Origin: Candidatus Aenigmatarchaeota archaeon
GTDB taxonomy: Archaea; Aenigmatarchaeota; Aenigmatarchaeia; CG10238-14; SCSR01
Direction: 5' to 3'
NCBI GenBank assembly: GCA_026397385.1
Contig: JAPLUY010000058.1
Location: forward strand, 1-55,462
Length of the DNA: 55,462 bases
The notes under the pieces are model-generated. The model was given only the letters and a program-made list of their open reading frames with translations, had not been told where the DNA came from and ran no database searches. Position 1 is the stretch's first letter, and each line of letters opens with the position of its first letter. Shown in pieces: positions 2,296 to 14,613 of the stretch. A program made the position numbers and the translations under genes.

Positions 2296-2360
2296 CAAAC
2301 ATCAACCTCCAGTTTATAGAATCGAAATCGCTCTTCGTTTTAAGACTATGTGTATGTGGG

Positions 2361-2376
2361 TATATAAGAATTTAAA
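2361..2376 (-). promoter_or_regulatory. TATA-like element upstream of thermosome gene
   Basis: The minus strand reads TTTAAATTCTTATATA about 65-80 nt upstream of ATG 2295. A GGAGGT Shine-Dalgarno-like element lies just before the ATG. Confidence 0.35.
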
Positions 2377-2431
2377 GGTTGCTTTTAAGTAAATTATTAA
2401 AATTTTAAAAACTCCGAAAGAGAAGGTTAAT

Positions 2432-3037
2432 ATGGTAAGATTGTCTCTTAGAACGCCGATAGAGCGTATGATAGATAAGCTCCTTTTGATTTACCTTTTT
2501 GGCACGCATAAAATTATAGACGACACCAAGGCTCAAAAGACGGTGTTTTTTGCCGAGAACAACATGAATGAAAAAAGAATAAAGGGCTTCAGTTATGATT
2601 TTATTAGATGGAATTTTGGTGAATTTAGCAGAGATTTGGAATCCGACTTAAAAGAATTGAAAAATAAAAACTTCATTACTGATAATTTAATCTTAACGCA
2701 AGACGGTGAAGAAATTCTAAATCAAATTGGGAGCGTCTTACAGAAGAATTCTGAAATTATAAAAAGAATTGATATGTTTGGCAGTTATACGGAATCCAAA
2801 TCTCTTACAGAAGTCAAAGATGTTGCATACACAAAAATTATAGTAAACGGCAAACAAGTAAAAGATTTGCCTATGGGTGAACCTCTATTACATAAATTAG
2901 ACGATTCTGAAGCTAGAATAAACTTTTCAATAGATACTGGGTGGCTTGGAACTTTTGAAGTTTTATTTAATCCGAGAATAAAAGATTCTTTGGATGTCGC
3001 CCTCACTGAAGAGGAATACATTCCATTCGAGGTCTAA
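2432..3037 (+). CDS. Panacea/DUF4065 (SocA-like) domain protein, candidate antitoxin (201 aa)
   Basis: AT-rich ORF with ATG at 2432 preceded by AGAAGG. The segment TKAQKTVFFAE...FSYDFIRWNFGEFSRDL resembles the KLQKLLYFA...W.yGPV core of the Panacea/DUF4065 family. The next ORF starts 10 nt downstream. Assignment is by eye only. Confidence 0.5.
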   Translation: MVRLSLRTPIERMIDKLLLIYLFGTHKIIDDTKAQKTVFFAENNMNEKRIKGFSYDFIRWNFGEFSRDLESDLKELKNKNFITDNLILTQDGEEILNQIGSVLQKNSEIIKRIDMFGSYTESKSLTEVKDVAYTKIIVNGKQVKDLPMGEPLLHKLDDSEARINFSIDTGWLGTFEVLFNPRIKDSLDVALTEEEYIPFEV

Positions 3038-3046
3038 TGATTTTAT

Positions 3047-3436
3047 ATGACTATTCATTTCAGACAACGGAAGAGATTCTCCAAGAATTTTGAAGGATTG
3101 TCTAAAGAAGGAAAGGAAATCCTTACTAAGGAATTGAGAAAATGGAAAATTATGGGCATAGAACATATCAAATATAGATCGAAACATCTGAAAGGGGAGT
3201 ACGCCGGTATTAGAAAAATAAGTTTAGGCAGAATGAGACTCTATTTTTTAATATGCGACGAATGTAGAAAACTTGGAGACGACATAAAATATGGAAGATG
3301 CAAAAAGTGTCCAAGAGAGCCTGATTTGATAAATTTGGTCGATGTCATAGAATTTAGACGTGAAGATACTTATGATAATCTTGATTTCGAAACTGAAGAT
3401 GTAAAAGATTTCACTGACGGAACTTATGAGGTATAG
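3047..3436 (+). CDS. RelE/ParE-like toxin-fold protein with inserted CxxC...CxxC zinc ribbon (129 aa)
   Basis: The motif HLKGEYAGIRKISLGRMRLYFLI ... INLVDVIEFRREDTYD matches the RelE/ParE pattern (LKG..g.yRlRvGdyRiiY ... vl.v.hRkdvY). CDEC-x11-CKKC (nt 3254..3310) is inserted between the strands. Confidence 0.5.
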   Translation: MTIHFRQRKRFSKNFEGLSKEGKEILTKELRKWKIMGIEHIKYRSKHLKGEYAGIRKISLGRMRLYFLICDECRKLGDDIKYGRCKKCPREPDLINLVDVIEFRREDTYDNLDFETEDVKDFTDGTYEV

Positions 3437-3459
3437 TTATCTTTTCTCCGAGTTCCAGA

Positions 3460-3549
3460 TTAATCAAACTCGCCTCCGCAGACGTGAACCCATTGAGCGT
3501 CTAGTACGGCTTCTACTGCTTCCTCGGTAAAGCCTTCCGCAGGAATTGG
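3460..3549 (-). pseudogene. possible 3' remnant of a GC-rich host gene (29 codons, no start)
   Basis: A GC-rich patch inside the AT-rich islet translates on the minus strand to APIPAEGFTEEAVEAVLDAQWVHVCGGEFD*, with host-like GC3 codons. An in-frame TAA lies just upstream, so no start is available. Confidence 0.3.
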
Positions 3550-3716
3550 CGCTTAATTGGATTGGCTTTATTTGGTGTTTTAGAACGTCCATATACGCGC
3601 CAATTGTCGTTTTTAGGAAAAGCACGTGTTATGCGTCTGCTGGCGGATCTGGGGCGTTTACAGAAGTGCAATTTTTAATTGGCTGTTAATTGGACGCGAT
3701 TGGCTGTTATTTGGAT
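3544..3716. repeat. iteron-like direct repeats (four copies of an ~18-nt ATTGGC..TTA.TTGGA unit)
   Basis: The copies are AATTGGCGCTTAATTGGA (3544-3561), ATTGGCTTTATTTGG (3561-3575), AATTGGCTGTTAATTGGA (3677-3694) and GATTGGCTGTTATTTGGA (3698-3715). The last two match at 16/18 positions and start 21 nt apart. They lie in a 370-bp non-coding gap between convergent genes. Confidence 0.6.
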
Positions 3717-3806
3717 GTCATTTTTTGTTGTCGTGCACGTTCGTTTGCATTTAGTATGTCAATTAAGTTTAACACCTTGAAAAGGACAACCGAATTTTGA
3801 TAGGGC

Positions 3807-4739
3807 TCAGTGATTTATCAAAAAATATGTTACAAATTCTACTGCAAATTTAGCATCCGCCACTTGAACATCTTGTTTTGTATTGTTCATTTGAATAATT
3901 CTTTTGAACGCAGAATAATCGATGTAATTCACACCCATACCAAAAATAGAAATTACATCTATTATATTTTTCGTATACTCACTAAATCTATTATTAACCG
4001 AAGAGAGAATTTCATCTTTAACCTTTTGAAGTTCTTCGTTGTCTATACGAGGTTCTGATTTCAATCCCCAGATAGGATCGTAGCTATCTTTTGTACGCCA
4101 AGGGTCTATGCCATAGAGTGGAAACAAACTTCTACCATCCATAGCAGAAGAACCTAATAATTCCATGCCAGATGGTTTATACCCAATTCTTTTCAATTCA
4201 CCTAATCTAGACTCAAAAATTGAGTCCGATATTGTCAGAGCGTCACAAATCTTTCCTTCCTCTAAGAATTTTTCAGATTTTTTAATTTCTGTTTTAAATC
4301 TGTCATCTTTAATTAAATCTGAAAGTGATATGGTGTCAAAATCTATTTCAAAAATAGTTTTAGTTGTTTCTGACAAAAAATTTTTGGTCCACACAAAAGA
4401 TTCATCTACGCTATCTCTAGTTTTTGTTTCTGCCAAATGCTGTATATCATTTCTAAGTTGCCTAACTCTAAGGACTTCTTTTTTCATTGTAAGTGTGTTT
4501 TCATGATTTTTTTCAAGATTTTTGTTTATACAGTCGTAGATATTTTCCATTGTAACAAGTTTGTCGATATCAATCTTAAGATAATCTGAAAGTATTCTTA
4601 AAATAAATTCATTGCATAAATCAAAATGATGTATAGCAAACATATTGTCCAATTTAGTATCATATCTACTATGATTTTTTCCATGTTCAAAAAATAATTT
4701 TAGCAAAATCAATTTTTTGAGAATTAAGTCATCTATCAT
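3807..4739 (-). CDS. HEPN-motif protein, putative RNase of defence/abortive-infection type (310 aa)
   Basis: AT-rich ORF with ATG at 4739. A canonical Rx4H HEPN motif, RNDIQH (aa 96-101, nt 4437..4454), sits in a predicted helical N-terminal domain. The C-terminal ~180 aa are unassigned. Confidence 0.55.
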   Translation of the reverse strand: MIDDLILKKLILLKLFFEHGKNHSRYDTKLDNMFAIHHFDLCNEFILRILSDYLKIDIDKLVTMENIYDCINKNLEKNHENTLTMKKEVLRVRQLRNDIQHLAETKTRDSVDESFVWTKNFLSETTKTIFEIDFDTISLSDLIKDDRFKTEIKKSEKFLEEGKICDALTISDSIFESRLGELKRIGYKPSGMELLGSSAMDGRSLFPLYGIDPWRTKDSYDPIWGLKSEPRIDNEELQKVKDEILSSVNNRFSEYTKNIIDVISIFGMGVNYIDYSAFKRIIQMNNTKQDVQVADAKFAVEFVTYFLINH

Positions 4740-4745
4740 GAATAT

Positions 4746-8213: not shown

Positions 8214-9054
8214 TTTTTTCATTTTTTATGCCAAAACAGCCTATGCCATCCAGAATCCTGATTCTAGTCTCAACATCTGTGCGGATTGGACAAAATCCAA
8301 AATGCTTCCAAATCATGTATTTTGTAATGTGATTCGCGTTCGAGAAACCTATTTTCGACATCCATTTTTCAAGATTCTTTTTTCCATTCAAGTAAATTCC
8401 ATGAATGGTGCGATACTTTCCATACATATTGTCGAATTGCTCCATGTCTGGAACTTCTGTAACTTTGAAGCCGTGTTTTCTTAACATCAAAGAAACCTCT
8501 CTAACAAGCGTCTTATTTGCGAATCCTGCGGAAATGACAGGGTACGTATGCAACTTGGACTTCCTTTTTACCTTGAACGTTAGCGAAAAGTCTGTATCAG
8601 CCAGACCCCTCAGGAACGAATACTGCATTTCGTCAGAAGCCTCTTTTATCAGTTTTGGAATTCTGACTACATTCGTTTTCTTCCCCAAAGGTATGCCCAC
8701 GGTCTTGTTAAGGAAAGAGGCGACTGCTGAAGAAGAAAATGAAAGCCTGATTGAATTTTCTCCTTTAACGTATTTTAGAGTTAAACAAATCCCGTACAGC
8801 TTCTTTTTCAAGGGGATTACAACCTCTTCGTAATAAATTCTGTCTTCGGATGAATGACCATAATATTCTATCTGGTTTCTAGTTTGTCGTCTGTCATGGC
8901 CTCTATGGGCGCAACCATCGCCGACGTGTATACCGATGTCTTCTGACAATTCTCGAGAAAGATATCTAGGAACTGTTATTCCTCTGTTTTTATCCCAATA
9001 ATTGAAAACCACATGCGAATTATCGAGTCTTAATTTCATAAAAATGGTGAGCAA
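8152..9054 (-). CDS. LAGLIDADG-family endonuclease-like protein (free-standing; ~295-300 aa)
   Basis: AT-rich ORF with two LAGLIDADG-type motifs (DIGIHVGDGC and FLRGLADTDFS) and a C-terminal YLNGKKNLEKWMSKIGFSN segment typical of the family. An ATG at 9039 is the probable start. The last ~20 codons are antisense to the tRNA-Ile 3' half. Confidence 0.7.
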   Translation of the reverse strand: MLTIFMKLRLDNSHVVFNYWDKNRGITVPRYLSRELSEDIGIHVGDGCAHRGHDRRQTRNQIEYYGHSSEDRIYYEEVVIPLKKKLYGICLTLKYVKGENSIRLSFSSSAVASFLNKTVGIPLGKKTNVVRIPKLIKEASDEMQYSFLRGLADTDFSLTFKVKRKSKLHTYPVISAGFANKTLVREVSLMLRKHGFKVTEVPDMEQFDNMYGKYRTIHGIYLNGKKNLEKWMSKIGFSNANHITKYMIWKHFGFCPIRTDVETRIRILDGIGCFGIKNEKMGPMGFEPICGSRTHCCARA

Positions 9055-11763: not shown

Positions 11764-13974
11764 CTACGCCTCCTCTTCCTCGGCCGTGACCAGCTCGGCC
11801 AGGCCCTTGCGCTTGCGCACGACGTCTATGGTCTTCTCGCGCAGGTCGTTCGGCAGCTTCTCGAAGACTATCGCTATCATGCTGTAGAACCCGCGGCCGC
11901 TCGTTATGCTCTTCAGCGTCGCGTCGAACCCGAACATGTCGGCTATCGGGAGCTTCGACGTGATTATGGCCGCGCCGCGCTCTATAACGATGTCCTGCAC
12001 CTGGCCGCGGCGGTTCTCAACCTCGCGCGTGACGCCGCCTATCAGCTCCTCGGGTATGTCGATGCGTATGTTTTGCTTCGGCTCAAGGAGCGTTAAGTCC
12101 GACTTCATGAGCGCCTTCTTCAGCGTCGTACGGAACGCCGGGATTATCTGGCCGGGGCCGCGGTGGACCGGGTCTTCGTGCAGCTCGGCGTCCGTCAGCA
12201 CTATCTTCACGCCGGTAACGGGCTCCTTGCAGAGCGGGCCCTCGTCCATCATGCTCACGAACGCTTCCTTCACGAGCTCCATGACCTCGTTCATGTACTG
12301 GACGCCCTTGGTATCGTCGAAAATCATGCATTTGTTGTGTATCATTACAAGGTTCTTGGCCTCGTCGCTCTTCATCCCCAGCTTGACGAGGTTCTCCGTC
12401 ACGTCGCTCTTTTTCTTCTTCTGTTCGAACTCGGACGGTATGATGCCTTCGTTCATCGCATTCGTTATCTCCGAGCTCACAGGCGATGCTATGACCGTGA
12501 ACTTGTTGTGCTTGTTCGGCGAGCGTCCCTCGGTCTCGGGCGATTCTTTGAAGATTGCCTCGCGGTAGACGACGATGGGCTTGGACATCTCGACGTCCAG
12601 CCCTATCTCCTTCAGCTTGCGCTCGACCTTCGACTCGATGTGCAGCTCGCCCAGTCCGCTGATCAGGTACTCGCCCGTCTCCTGGTTGATCTTGATCTTC
12701 AGCGTGTTGTCCTCGCGGCTAAGCTGCTTCAGCGTGTTGATGAGCTTCGGCAGGTCCATCGCGTTCTTCGGCTCCACCGACTTGGTGACGACGGGCTCGA
12801 ACAAGTGCTTGATCTCCTCGAACGGCTCTATCTCCGTGCCGGCTTCGCACACGGTCTCGCCCGTATAAGCATCGGATATGCCGACGACAGCCGCGATGTT
12901 GCCAGCGACGACCTCTTCCGCCGGGATGCGTTGTATCCCCTTGTAAACGGCGACCTGTTGTATCTTCTCGTCCTTCTTCAGCCCGATCAGGTGCACGTCC
13001 TTGCCCTTCGAGATGCGGCCCGAGAATATTCGGCCCGCGGCTACGAAGCCCACGTGCGGGTCGGGCACCATCTTCGTTATGATCATCGCCAGCTTGCCGT
13101 CCGGGTTGCACGAGAGCATGTCCTTGCCGAGCTCGCTGTTCAGGTCGCCCTTCCATATCTTCGGCACGCGGTAGGCCTGCGCCACCTTCGGATTCGGCAG
13201 GTGCTGTATCATCATGTCCAGCACGACCTTGTGCATCGGCGCGATGCGGGCGAGCTCGTCGTCCTTGTCCTGGTTGACGAGGTCGATGATCTGCTTGAAC
13301 GTTATGCCGGTCTTCTTCATGTACGGTATGGATATGGCCCACTTCCGTGTGGCCGAGCCGAAGGCGACTGTGCCGTCGTTGACGTTGACCATCCACTGGT
13401 TCTTGAATTCGTCGTCCGCGTACTTGTGGATGAGCATGTTGACCTCTTCTATCCACTTCATGAAGCGCTCCTGCATCATCTCCGGCGACAGCTTCAGCTC
13501 GCGTATCAGACGGTCGACCTTGTTTATGAAAAGTACGGGCTTGACGCGCTCGCGCAGCGCTTGCCTGAAAACGGTCTCGGTCTGCGGCATCAGCCCCTCG
13601 ACCGCGCACACGAGGACTATGGTGCCGTCGACGGCGCGCATCGCGCGCGTGACGTCACCGCCGAAGTCGACGTGACCGGGCGTGTCGACGAGGTTGATGA
13701 GGAAGTCGCGGCCCTCGTATTCGTGTATCATGCTCACGTTCGCGCCGTAGATGGTCAGCTGGCGCGAACGTTCCTGCTCGTCGAACCAAGTGAACATGCC
13801 CGTCTCGACGTCACCGACGACCTTGTCCGACAGCATGCCGGCCCCGCCCATCAAGTTGTCAGTGAGCGTGGTCTTGCCGTGGTGCACGTGCGAGCTGGTG
13901 GCCACGTTGCGTATGCGCGTCGGGTCCGTCATGACCTCTTTGACGCGATCCATCGTGTCCTTGGTAGTCGCCAT
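11764..13974 (-). CDS. fusA: translation elongation factor EF-2 (aEF2)
   Basis: HVHHGKTTL, DTPGHVDF and NKVDR GTPase motifs, plus the diphthamide-site region HEDPVHRGPGQ. ATG at 13974 (the ORF-track start at 13986 is a TTG). Confidence 0.97.
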   Translation of the reverse strand: MATTKDTMDRVKEVMTDPTRIRNVATSSHVHHGKTTLTDNLMGGAGMLSDKVVGDVETGMFTWFDEQERSRQLTIYGANVSMIHEYEGRDFLINLVDTPGHVDFGGDVTRAMRAVDGTIVLVCAVEGLMPQTETVFRQALRERVKPVLFINKVDRLIRELKLSPEMMQERFMKWIEEVNMLIHKYADDEFKNQWMVNVNDGTVAFGSATRKWAISIPYMKKTGITFKQIIDLVNQDKDDELARIAPMHKVVLDMMIQHLPNPKVAQAYRVPKIWKGDLNSELGKDMLSCNPDGKLAMIITKMVPDPHVGFVAAGRIFSGRISKGKDVHLIGLKKDEKIQQVAVYKGIQRIPAEEVVAGNIAAVVGISDAYTGETVCEAGTEIEPFEEIKHLFEPVVTKSVEPKNAMDLPKLINTLKQLSREDNTLKIKINQETGEYLISGLGELHIESKVERKLKEIGLDVEMSKPIVVYREAIFKESPETEGRSPNKHNKFTVIASPVSSEITNAMNEGIIPSEFEQKKKKSDVTENLVKLGMKSDEAKNLVMIHNKCMIFDDTKGVQYMNEVMELVKEAFVSMMDEGPLCKEPVTGVKIVLTDAELHEDPVHRGPGQIIPAFRTTLKKALMKSDLTLLEPKQNIRIDIPEELIGGVTREVENRRGQVQDIVIERGAAIITSKLPIADMFGFDATLKSITSGRGFYSMIAIVFEKLPNDLREKTIDVVRKRKGLAELVTAEEEEA

Positions 13975-14010
13975 AAGAGTCACCAAAAAAAGTCAGCCAT
14001 ACGCCACAGC

Positions 14011-14613
14011 CTATCTCGCGCCCTCGGCCTCGCGCTCTATGCGCTCGCGCTCCTTCACGGCCTCGGACTTGGAAGCGTCGTTCTCCGACGCCGCCACGAG
14101 CTCGTTCGCCATGACGTCGGCTATCTTCACGCCCTTGCCGAAGCTCTTCCTGTACGCCGCCTGCGTGATGGTGCGCAGCGCCAGATCCATCCTGCGCTGC
14201 GGGCTCGTGACGACCGCGCGGCGGACGATTATCCCGCCGACCTGGTACGCCGCGATCTCCTCGCGTAGCGCCGCGTTCTCGATAGCGCGCACGAGCACCT
14301 CGACCGGGTTCTTCTTCGTGCGCTGCTCGATGATTGCAAAAGCAACCTCCAAGGTCTTGTACTCCTTGGTGTACTTGCCGCTCGTGACGTCCGAGCAGAT
14401 GACGTGCTTGCGGCTGCGGTGGCCGGGGACCATCATCTTCGTGATGAGCCGCTCGACTATGCTCATCTTCGCCTTGCCGTGCTGCGAGCTGGAGAACCTG
14501 CCGCTGCTGCGCGGTACTATCACAGGCTTCAACCCGATGTAGCGCTCAAGGCCCTTGTCGTTGACCTTCACCTCGGCCGTCGACCACTTGTCGAAAAGTT
14601 TCATCTCCATCAT
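14011..14613 (-). CDS. rps7: 30S ribosomal protein S7 (uS7)
   Basis: 200 aa with the typical archaeal S7 sequence and a position between S12 and EF-2. Confidence 0.95.
   Translation of the reverse strand: MMEMKLFDKWSTAEVKVNDKGLERYIGLKPVIVPRSSGRFSSSQHGKAKMSIVERLITKMMVPGHRSRKHVICSDVTSGKYTKEYKTLEVAFAIIEQRTKKNPVEVLVRAIENAALREEIAAYQVGGIIVRRAVVTSPQRRMDLALRTITQAAYRKSFGKGVKIADVMANELVAASENDASKSEAVKERERIEREAEGAR

Follow-up and report, generated by a model that had tools for sequence, protein, structure and literature searches.

Positions 1 to 55,462 of contig JAPLUY010000058.1 (GenBank assembly GCA_026397385.1), from a Candidatus Aenigmatarchaeota archaeon, form the 55,462-nucleotide (nt) stretch of DNA analyzed here and hereafter called the window. 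Near its start lie two co-oriented open reading frames, ORF1 and ORF2, a candidate toxin-antitoxin (TA) pair of a Panacea-like protein and a RelE/ParE-like protein carrying an inserted block of four cysteines (Cys4). The original prediction, made by eye from the sequence, gave the correct orientation and coordinates of both frames and a spacing of 10 nt, but the stop codon of ORF1 is separated from the ATG of ORF2 by 9 nt (3038-3046). The peptides that it quoted (KAQKTVFFAE, FIRWNFGEFSRDL, HLKGEYAGIRKISLGRMRLYFLI and LVDVIEFRREDTYD) were all found in the ORF translations, and its CDEC-x11-CKKC motif at nt 3254..3310 proved exact to the nucleotide (C70-D-E-C73-x11-C85-K-K-C88). The features of the two genes, with lengths in amino acids (aa), are as follows.

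2432..3037, + strand: ORF1, putative antitoxin (PanA-like), 201 aa
2477..2830, + strand: Panacea-like domain of ORF1, aa 16-133, as aligned by hhalign with PF13274 proteins
2831..3034, + strand: C-terminal extension of ORF1, aa 134-201, conserved across its family
3047..3436, + strand: ORF2, putative toxin of the RelE/ParE superfamily with a Cys4 insert, 129 aa, assigned by profile comparisons and conservation
3047..3253, + strand: predicted first two thirds of the RelE fold, aa 1-69, comprising one strand, two helices and strands 2-3 and holding L48, R56/K57 and R64
3254..3319, + strand: zinc-ribbon-like inserted block, aa 70-91, CDECRKLGDDIKYGRCKKCPRE, with the Cys4 core at 3254-3310
3320..3373, + strand: predicted strand 4 and C-terminal catalytic-type motif, aa 92-109, PDLINLVDVIEFRREDTY, with R104/R105 and Y109
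3374..3433, + strand: acidic C-terminal tail, aa 110-129, net charge -7

ORF2 belongs to a small family: a set of 5.8 billion clustered proteins contains five close homologues, and one of 1.84 billion representatives yielded 19 clusters. All members share the consensus LKG..G.R..R.G..RI.F.IC.EC..LG...C..C....I.L.DV..R...TY, and the 20-residue acidic tail is confined to a branch of 120-132 aa. When the members were scanned one by one, RelE_StbE matched 10 of 24 (best E 3e-6) and ParE_toxin (PF05016) 6 of 24 (best E 5.6e-5); the Txe/YoeB and YafQ models were also matched by individual members, and the distant member P0035 passed PF05016 itself (24.1 bits, cut-off 23). As the reference for hhalign, whose E-values are throughout those of single pairwise comparisons, 27 genuine PF05016 toxins were gathered from the same phylum, Aenigmatarchaeota. 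The ORF2 family aligned with these toxins at 98.6% probability with its insert (E 5.6e-16) and, over the full length, at 98.9% once the insert was removed (E 2.5e-17); cross-family and column-shuffled controls gave <=5%. The segment aa 92-109 aligns with the ...HR..vY end of PF05016 and with R85 and Y89 of the archaeal toxin aRelE. AlphaFold2 (AF2) models of both proteins were built from shallow alignments and used solely for the order of secondary-structure elements. For ORF2, strands (E) and helices (H) were predicted at E11-14, H20-36, H39-43, E53-59, E62-70 and, beyond the insert, E95-104, an order that fits a strand-helix-helix-strand-strand-strand topology in a model of low confidence (mean predicted local distance difference test score, pLDDT, 53). 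These comparisons support ORF2 as a member of the RelE/ParE superfamily that carries an inserted Cys4 block.

Canonical PF05016 toxins occur widely in the phylum, in 93 of 301 genomes. The Cys4-bearing form was found at full length in just two of 371 phylum genomes searched with the ORF2 family profile, namely this genome and G321; in 34 further genomes the matches stop at position ~68 (E 1e-11 to 1e-5), and several of these partial matches are canonical PF05016 toxins already collected above. Two canonical ParE_toxin genes without the Cys insert also lie in the source genome of the window (G000), on contig C36 at 8569-8793 (-) and 13901-14122 (+).

The insert occupies the turn between strands 3 and 4, between the segments RLYFLI and LINLVDV. 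All four cysteines are invariant in the five close homologues of ORF2; 22 of 24 family members have all of them, even at <30% identity, and the remaining two keep three; the knuckle spacing CxxC-x10-13-CxxC likewise holds in 22 of 24. Alignments with external RelE/ParE models all end at the first cysteine and continue past the block once it is deleted. The insertion hypothesis was tested by in silico deletion of the Cys block followed by rescoring, which raised the ParE_toxin score of P0035 from 24.1 to 34.8 bits, with coverage extended from 4-73 to 4-89 of 89, and that of P0027 from 13.8 to 20.5 bits. The four best matches of the insert-free family profile in the Protein Data Bank (PDB) were RelG/Rv2866 (E 8.5e-4), RelE (E 3.2e-3), aRelE PHS013 (E 0.012, full length) and 2khe, and these alignments cross the junction and reach the C-terminal R...Y motif. 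Matches of ORF2 family members to zinc-ribbon families were weak and generic only. The block probably binds zinc. No description of a RelE/ParE toxin with a zinc-ribbon insert was found in the literature, a 2009 survey of type II TA systems included.

The RelE/ParE fold covers two kinds of toxin, and the residues of ORF2 bear on which kind it is. In aRelE, residues L48, R58, R65, R85 and the terminal Tyr are important, as Takagi et al. (2005, a study that PMC10440598 cites) are said to have found. The counterparts of L48 and R65 are L48 (conserved in 22 of 24 members) and R64 (23 of 24). R58 corresponds to K57, which is basic in 14 of 24 members and stands beside the nearly invariant R56. R85 corresponds to R105, with Arg in all ten members that align there among 18 from which the insert had been removed, and the terminal Y89 corresponds to Y109 in the TY motif of the family. 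RelE-type activity is most likely favored over ParE-type activity for ORF2, because the function-specific models and structures that match its family (RelE_StbE, YoeB/Txe, YafQ, RelG, RelK and aRelE) are all mRNA interferases. A ParE-like ORF2, which within the same cassette would poison DNA gyrase or another topoisomerase and cut no mRNA on the ribosome, would agree with the name of the best Pfam family, ParE_toxin, though PF05016 spans both RelE and ParE. It would also agree with the presence of ParE among Panacea partners (Kurata et al., PMC8832971) and with the ability of members of this fold to do either job (PMC10440598). Set against the uniformly interferase-type matches and the conserved Arg and Tyr positions of aRelE, a ParE-like ORF2 appears quite unlikely to us.

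ORF1 was approached through its own family, which comprised 26 proteins by profile search and later 29. Some of these are named 'YwgA' by JGI, a name on which the literature offered nothing useful. The hhalign reference consisted of nine phylum proteins that pass the PF13274 cut-off, six canonical and three of a divergent GPxS type. Against all nine, the ORF1 family scored 96.8% (E 2.5e-10) over 119 columns, corresponding to ORF1 residues 16-133, and the extended family of 29 scored 97.3% (E 1.9e-11). Against the three GPxS-type proteins the ORF1 family scored 97.0% (E 1.2e-10), and shuffled controls stayed at <=0.2%. The aligned domain contains KAQKTVFFAE as the central-helix motif and G63-E64-F65-S66 as the counterpart of the GPV signature, a strand 2 motif of functional importance in Panacea (Kurata et al. 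2022, PMC8832971). In the GPV column of the 29 proteins, Gly is invariant (29/29), the second position is Glu in 21 and Pro in 7, the latter being the most distant members, and the third is F, Y, M or L. ORF1 is supported, at the level of family profiles, as a remote and divergent Panacea homologue with an additional C-terminal part. Panacea proteins are rare in the phylum (9 of 371 genomes), as are Phd/YefM proteins (2 of 251).

The additional part itself (aa 134-201) showed no similarity to Pfam families, PDB structures or YefM. The idea that it is a YefM/Phd-like tail is not supported: a 76-residue C-terminal profile found neither a Phd/YefM/RelB structure at E<=10 nor a Pfam family and missed both true PF02604 proteins of the phylum.

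Searched alone, ORF1 matched the PADLOC model PDC-M19A at E 2.5e-8, over no more than the first 110 residues of ORF1. It also matched a PHROG of unknown function and, weakly, wHTH-PRTase_assc. PDC-M19A was matched by all 26 family members (best E 1.4e-9) at model positions 6-111 of 294 only, and the Pfam family wHTH-PRTase_assc by 8 of 26; residues 59-105 of ORF1 weakly resemble a winged helix (PF24409). The part of the PADLOC DarG model outside the macrodomain (positions ~168-255) was also matched by 10 of 26 ORF1 relatives (best E 9.6e-7), and retron III-A winged-helix models by a few. The matches to these models give hints that the Panacea-like core may share a winged-helix-like unit with other antitoxin and defence proteins.

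The two genes travel together. In nine loci a gene of the ORF1 type lies directly upstream of the gene for the Cys4-bearing (Zn-RelE) toxin; the two are 8-23 nt apart or overlap by 4 nt, and the adjacency persists where the toxin is just 30-37% identical to ORF2. Pairwise divergences of the two proteins co-vary (Mantel r 0.90, reached in 4 of 5000 permutations). Compared with three homologous loci, the ratio of non-synonymous to synonymous substitution rates (dN/dS) is 0.08-0.15 for ORF1 and 0.09-0.17 for ORF2, with dS near saturation; both genes are real and under purifying selection. The GC content of the module is below that of its surroundings in 8 of 9 loci, and the full-length cassette occurs in 2 of 371 phylum genomes, the census beyond the phylum being drawn from metagenome protein searches only. 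The neighbors differ from locus to locus: an IS240 transposase with an MjaI restriction-modification (R-M) system; an MmeI R-M system with Csa1 and a ParE/MazE pair; a ParA-like gene; a dCMP deaminase; a DDE transposase; a Cdc6/Orc1 gene; and a Cas4-like nuclease with an R-M specificity-like gene. ORF1 and ORF2 behave as one mobile module.

The cassette of G321 (L057, G321:C24) is flanked on one side by a gene for a Cas4/RecB-like nuclease with a C-terminal Cys cluster (105-758) and on the other by a gene resembling the C-terminal domain of an R-M specificity subunit or methylase (2499-3371), both identified by eye; this setting looks like a defence island.

Neighbors of this kind, often R-M systems, a Cas4-like nuclease, transposases and other TA genes, would suit a pair that acts mainly as an antiviral abortive-infection or defence module, in which a winged-helix-like ORF1 would detect a viral trigger and then free or switch on the RelE-like effector. 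The same role would be in keeping with the match of every ORF1 relative to the N-terminal domain of PDC-M19A, with the matches of several to the DarG part and the retron III-A models, and with the sensor role of Panacea proposed by Ernits et al. (PMC10440598). However, PDC-M19A is matched in that portion of its length only, ORF2 matches no PADLOC model, and a defence function would extend a TA reading rather than exclude it; we regard defence as the main role of the pair as unlikely. A further alternative is that ORF2 is a non-toxic, repurposed protein of RelE fold, such as a zinc-ribbon nucleic-acid-binding regulator with ORF1 as its winged-helix partner, and that no TA system is present. Zinc ribbons are commonly nucleic-acid binders, part of ORF1 weakly resembles a winged helix, and both proteins are very divergent and fall under all curated cut-offs. 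A regulator of this sort nevertheless seems very improbable, given that the family conserves the basic and aromatic residues that matter for RelE activity and that strict two-gene linkage, mobility, patchiness (2 of 371 genomes) and an AT-rich cassette are hallmarks of selfish TA or defence genes, not of housekeeping regulators.

Taking the evidence together, we consider it likely that ORF1 and ORF2 form a bicistronic, horizontally mobile type II TA (or abortive-infection-type) cassette of the PanA-PanT kind with a RelE-type toxin. An antitoxin gene upstream of its toxin gene is the usual order. The toxicity and RNase activity of ORF2 are what we infer from its relatives: with its RelE/ParE fold it would act like RelE, YoeB or aRelE, by translation-dependent cutting of mRNA on the ribosome. 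ORF1, encoded upstream, would bind and inactivate ORF2 directly, by analogy with characterized PanA proteins. Panacea antitoxins pair with mRNA interferases and with ParE-domain toxins, and PanA proteins neutralize their toxins either directly or through appended elements (PMC8832971, PMC10440598). Because multidomain PanA proteins neutralize via appended elements (PMC10440598), the C-terminal ~70 residues of ORF1 (134-201) are the candidate neutralizing part, and the Panacea-like core would then serve as a scaffold or sensor.

Several observations count against this cassette and the homologies beneath it. A Pfam scan of ORF2 gave no match at E<=1, and the NCBIfam model RelE_StbE (TIGR02385) reached 14.4 bits over residues 20-72, where the cut-off is 27.9. 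PF13274 gave no match to ORF1 at E<=1 (cut-off 25.7 bits). The link of ORF1 to Panacea is mainly driven by the divergent GPxS sub-branch of PF13274, the six canonical proteins giving 72-85% (E 3.5e-5 to 6.9e-6), and its GPV counterpart is G63-E64-F65, with Pro replaced by Glu. The AF2 models are poor (pLDDT 53 for ORF2 and 46 for ORF1), so that the fold and the complex are structurally unsupported. The choice of RelE over ParE comes solely from the best-scoring relatives and the conserved Arg and Tyr positions. Finally, at locus L050 a different gene stands upstream of that for the distant toxin relative P0035, as would be expected under occasional partner swapping. Other searches were also unproductive: SocA_Panacea was touched by 2 of 26 ORF1 family members only (E 0.028), none reaching the Pfam cut-off; a six-frame PF13274 search of the whole genome found nothing; phmmer of ORF1 and ORF2 against solved structures in the PDB gave nothing useful; and Foldseek of the low-confidence AF2 models against the PDB returned noise only (best E 1.5).

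The original prediction had called ORF1 Panacea/DUF4065-like and ORF2 RelE/ParE-like and had named profile searches as the check. On single sequences neither call survives this check, since both proteins fail the Pfam and NCBIfam thresholds, but the profile-profile matches of both families are significant (96.8-97.3% for ORF1; 98.6%, E 5.6e-16, for ORF2). A quick annotation check alone would have rejected both assignments, which hold only as remote homology at the level of whole families.

As to the insert, the strand 3-4 hairpin of ORF2 would be replaced by a ~22-residue CxxC-x11-CxxC knuckle pair forming a small rigid module, basic around the metal site. This module may stiffen or extend the hairpin, either as a structural brace or as an additional contact to RNA, the ribosome or the antitoxin. 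A bolder proposal, which we hold to be doubtful, is that the insert is no passive brace but a functional device marking a separate, mostly DPANN-archaeal RelE lineage. As an adaptor, it may fit the toxin to the archaeal ribosome or permit RNA binding without a ribosome. As a metal or redox switch, it may respond to a lost or oxidized zinc site with a change in the strand 3-4 hairpin and, through this, in the activity of the toxin or its release from the Panacea-like partner.

The setting of the pair in the window comprises two further features.

2394..2431, + strand: putative promoter and leader of the two-gene operon, by sequence inspection
2299..4745 (about), no strand: AT-rich accessory island, 33% GC versus 56% GC for the whole window

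A TATA-like element (TTTTAAAA) lies at 2403-2410, ~25 nt 5' of the ORF1 ATG, within an AT palindrome at 2394-2411; this segment is the putative promoter and leader of a bicistronic operon. The 2.4-kb island sits in a variable slot between a thermosome gene at one end and, at the other end, a 67-aa conserved gene followed by MGMT and an acetyltransferase. In a genome of the same genus, G001, the same genes flank the slot and enclose only 0.9 kb (39% GC; L068, G001:C11, 2036-2952), which lacks the cassette and holds a different 147-aa membrane-like ORF. No tRNA was found at the island, and no convincing direct repeats flank it. The source genome, with 675 kb spread over 59 contigs and a completeness of 78%, is that of a tiny DPANN archaeon and carries the cassette on a small AT-rich mobile insert; an NCBI name on one ORF1 relative likewise points to Aenigmatarchaeota.

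The island also carries a third gene, ORF3 (3807-4739, - strand, 310 aa), with no Pfam match and a weak match to PHROG phrog_37995 (E 4e-6). It was ruled out as a third component of the cassette: because it is missing from the eight other loci that carry the pair, ORF3 is separate cargo and does not travel with ORF1 and ORF2. In the non-coding gap 3' of ORF2, a 21-nt direct repeat (ATTGGCTGTTAATTGGA...) occurs three times (3545-3565, 3678-3698 and 3699-3719), together with an 18-nt inverted repeat (3544-3561/3588-3605). The thermosome gene beside the island (659-2298, - strand) is split over two frames in the ORF list (659-1096 and 1033-2298), which suggests a frameshift or an assembly error.

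The pair is most likely a rare and apparently undescribed variant of the Panacea / RelE-ParE TA systems; judging from its contexts, it is mostly archaeal. To our knowledge, toxins of the RelE/ParE group rank with the best studied in bacteria and are viewed as minimal domains that hold no metal. A conserved zinc-ribbon-like lineage would show that the RelE fold can accommodate an inserted metal site and perhaps make use of it, and the insert offers a direct test of the share of the strand 3-4 hairpin in ribosome and antitoxin recognition; the significance would rise if it retargets or gates the toxin. The Panacea network would be extended to a divergent branch that is invisible to standard Pfam annotation and is present in DPANN archaea, a group with a poorly charted set of mobile and defence genes. 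Both proteins are now "hypothetical" in public sources, and the family alignments would permit their annotation.

The pairing of Panacea with a RelE/ParE fold that the original prediction put forward is a combination already on record (PMC8832971, PMC10440598). Like PanA-PanT systems, the locus has an upstream gene for a Panacea-type antitoxin with a small toxin gene close behind or overlapping, on cassettes that are mobile and patchy, and the partner toxins of those systems include mRNA interferases and ParE-domain proteins. Unlike them, ORF1 falls below the PF13274 threshold, in a divergent branch where GPV becomes G-E/P-F/Y-S, and bears an uncharacterized 70-aa C-terminal extension without detectable Phd-C/YefM similarity; the toxin has a Cys4 insert, which PMC8832971 and PMC10440598 do not mention, and the hosts are DPANN archaea, absent from the archaeal phyla listed in PMC10440598. 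With component A of PADLOC PDC-M19 the N-terminal ~110 residues of ORF1 match, whereas the model is covered at 6-111 of 294 only and ORF2 has no PADLOC counterpart; a limited literature check did not find a description of PDC-M19.

ORF2 resembles aRelE PHS013 of Pyrococcus horikoshii (PDB 1wmi), RelE, RelG (Rv2866, 3g5o), RelK and YoeB in superfamily and in the order of elements. These toxins are of ~85-100 aa, join strands 3 and 4 by a short turn and are metal-free, whereas ORF2 has a 22-aa block at that turn and a 20-aa acidic tail, and the partner is Panacea-like in place of the RelB or YefM of aRelE/RelE systems. With the canonical PF05016 toxins of the phylum, ORF2 is homologous over the whole fold (98.6-98.9% by hhalign), but those toxins have no Cys block, and the Zn-RelE profile matches them no further than position ~68. 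MqsR-MqsA and the MqsA(ZBD)-HTH-Panacea systems (PMC10440598) likewise join a toxin of RelE-like fold with a zinc module, and some of those antitoxins include Panacea. There, however, the zinc module sits on the antitoxin and aids neutralization, whereas here the Cys4 block is inserted in the predicted fold of the toxin itself.

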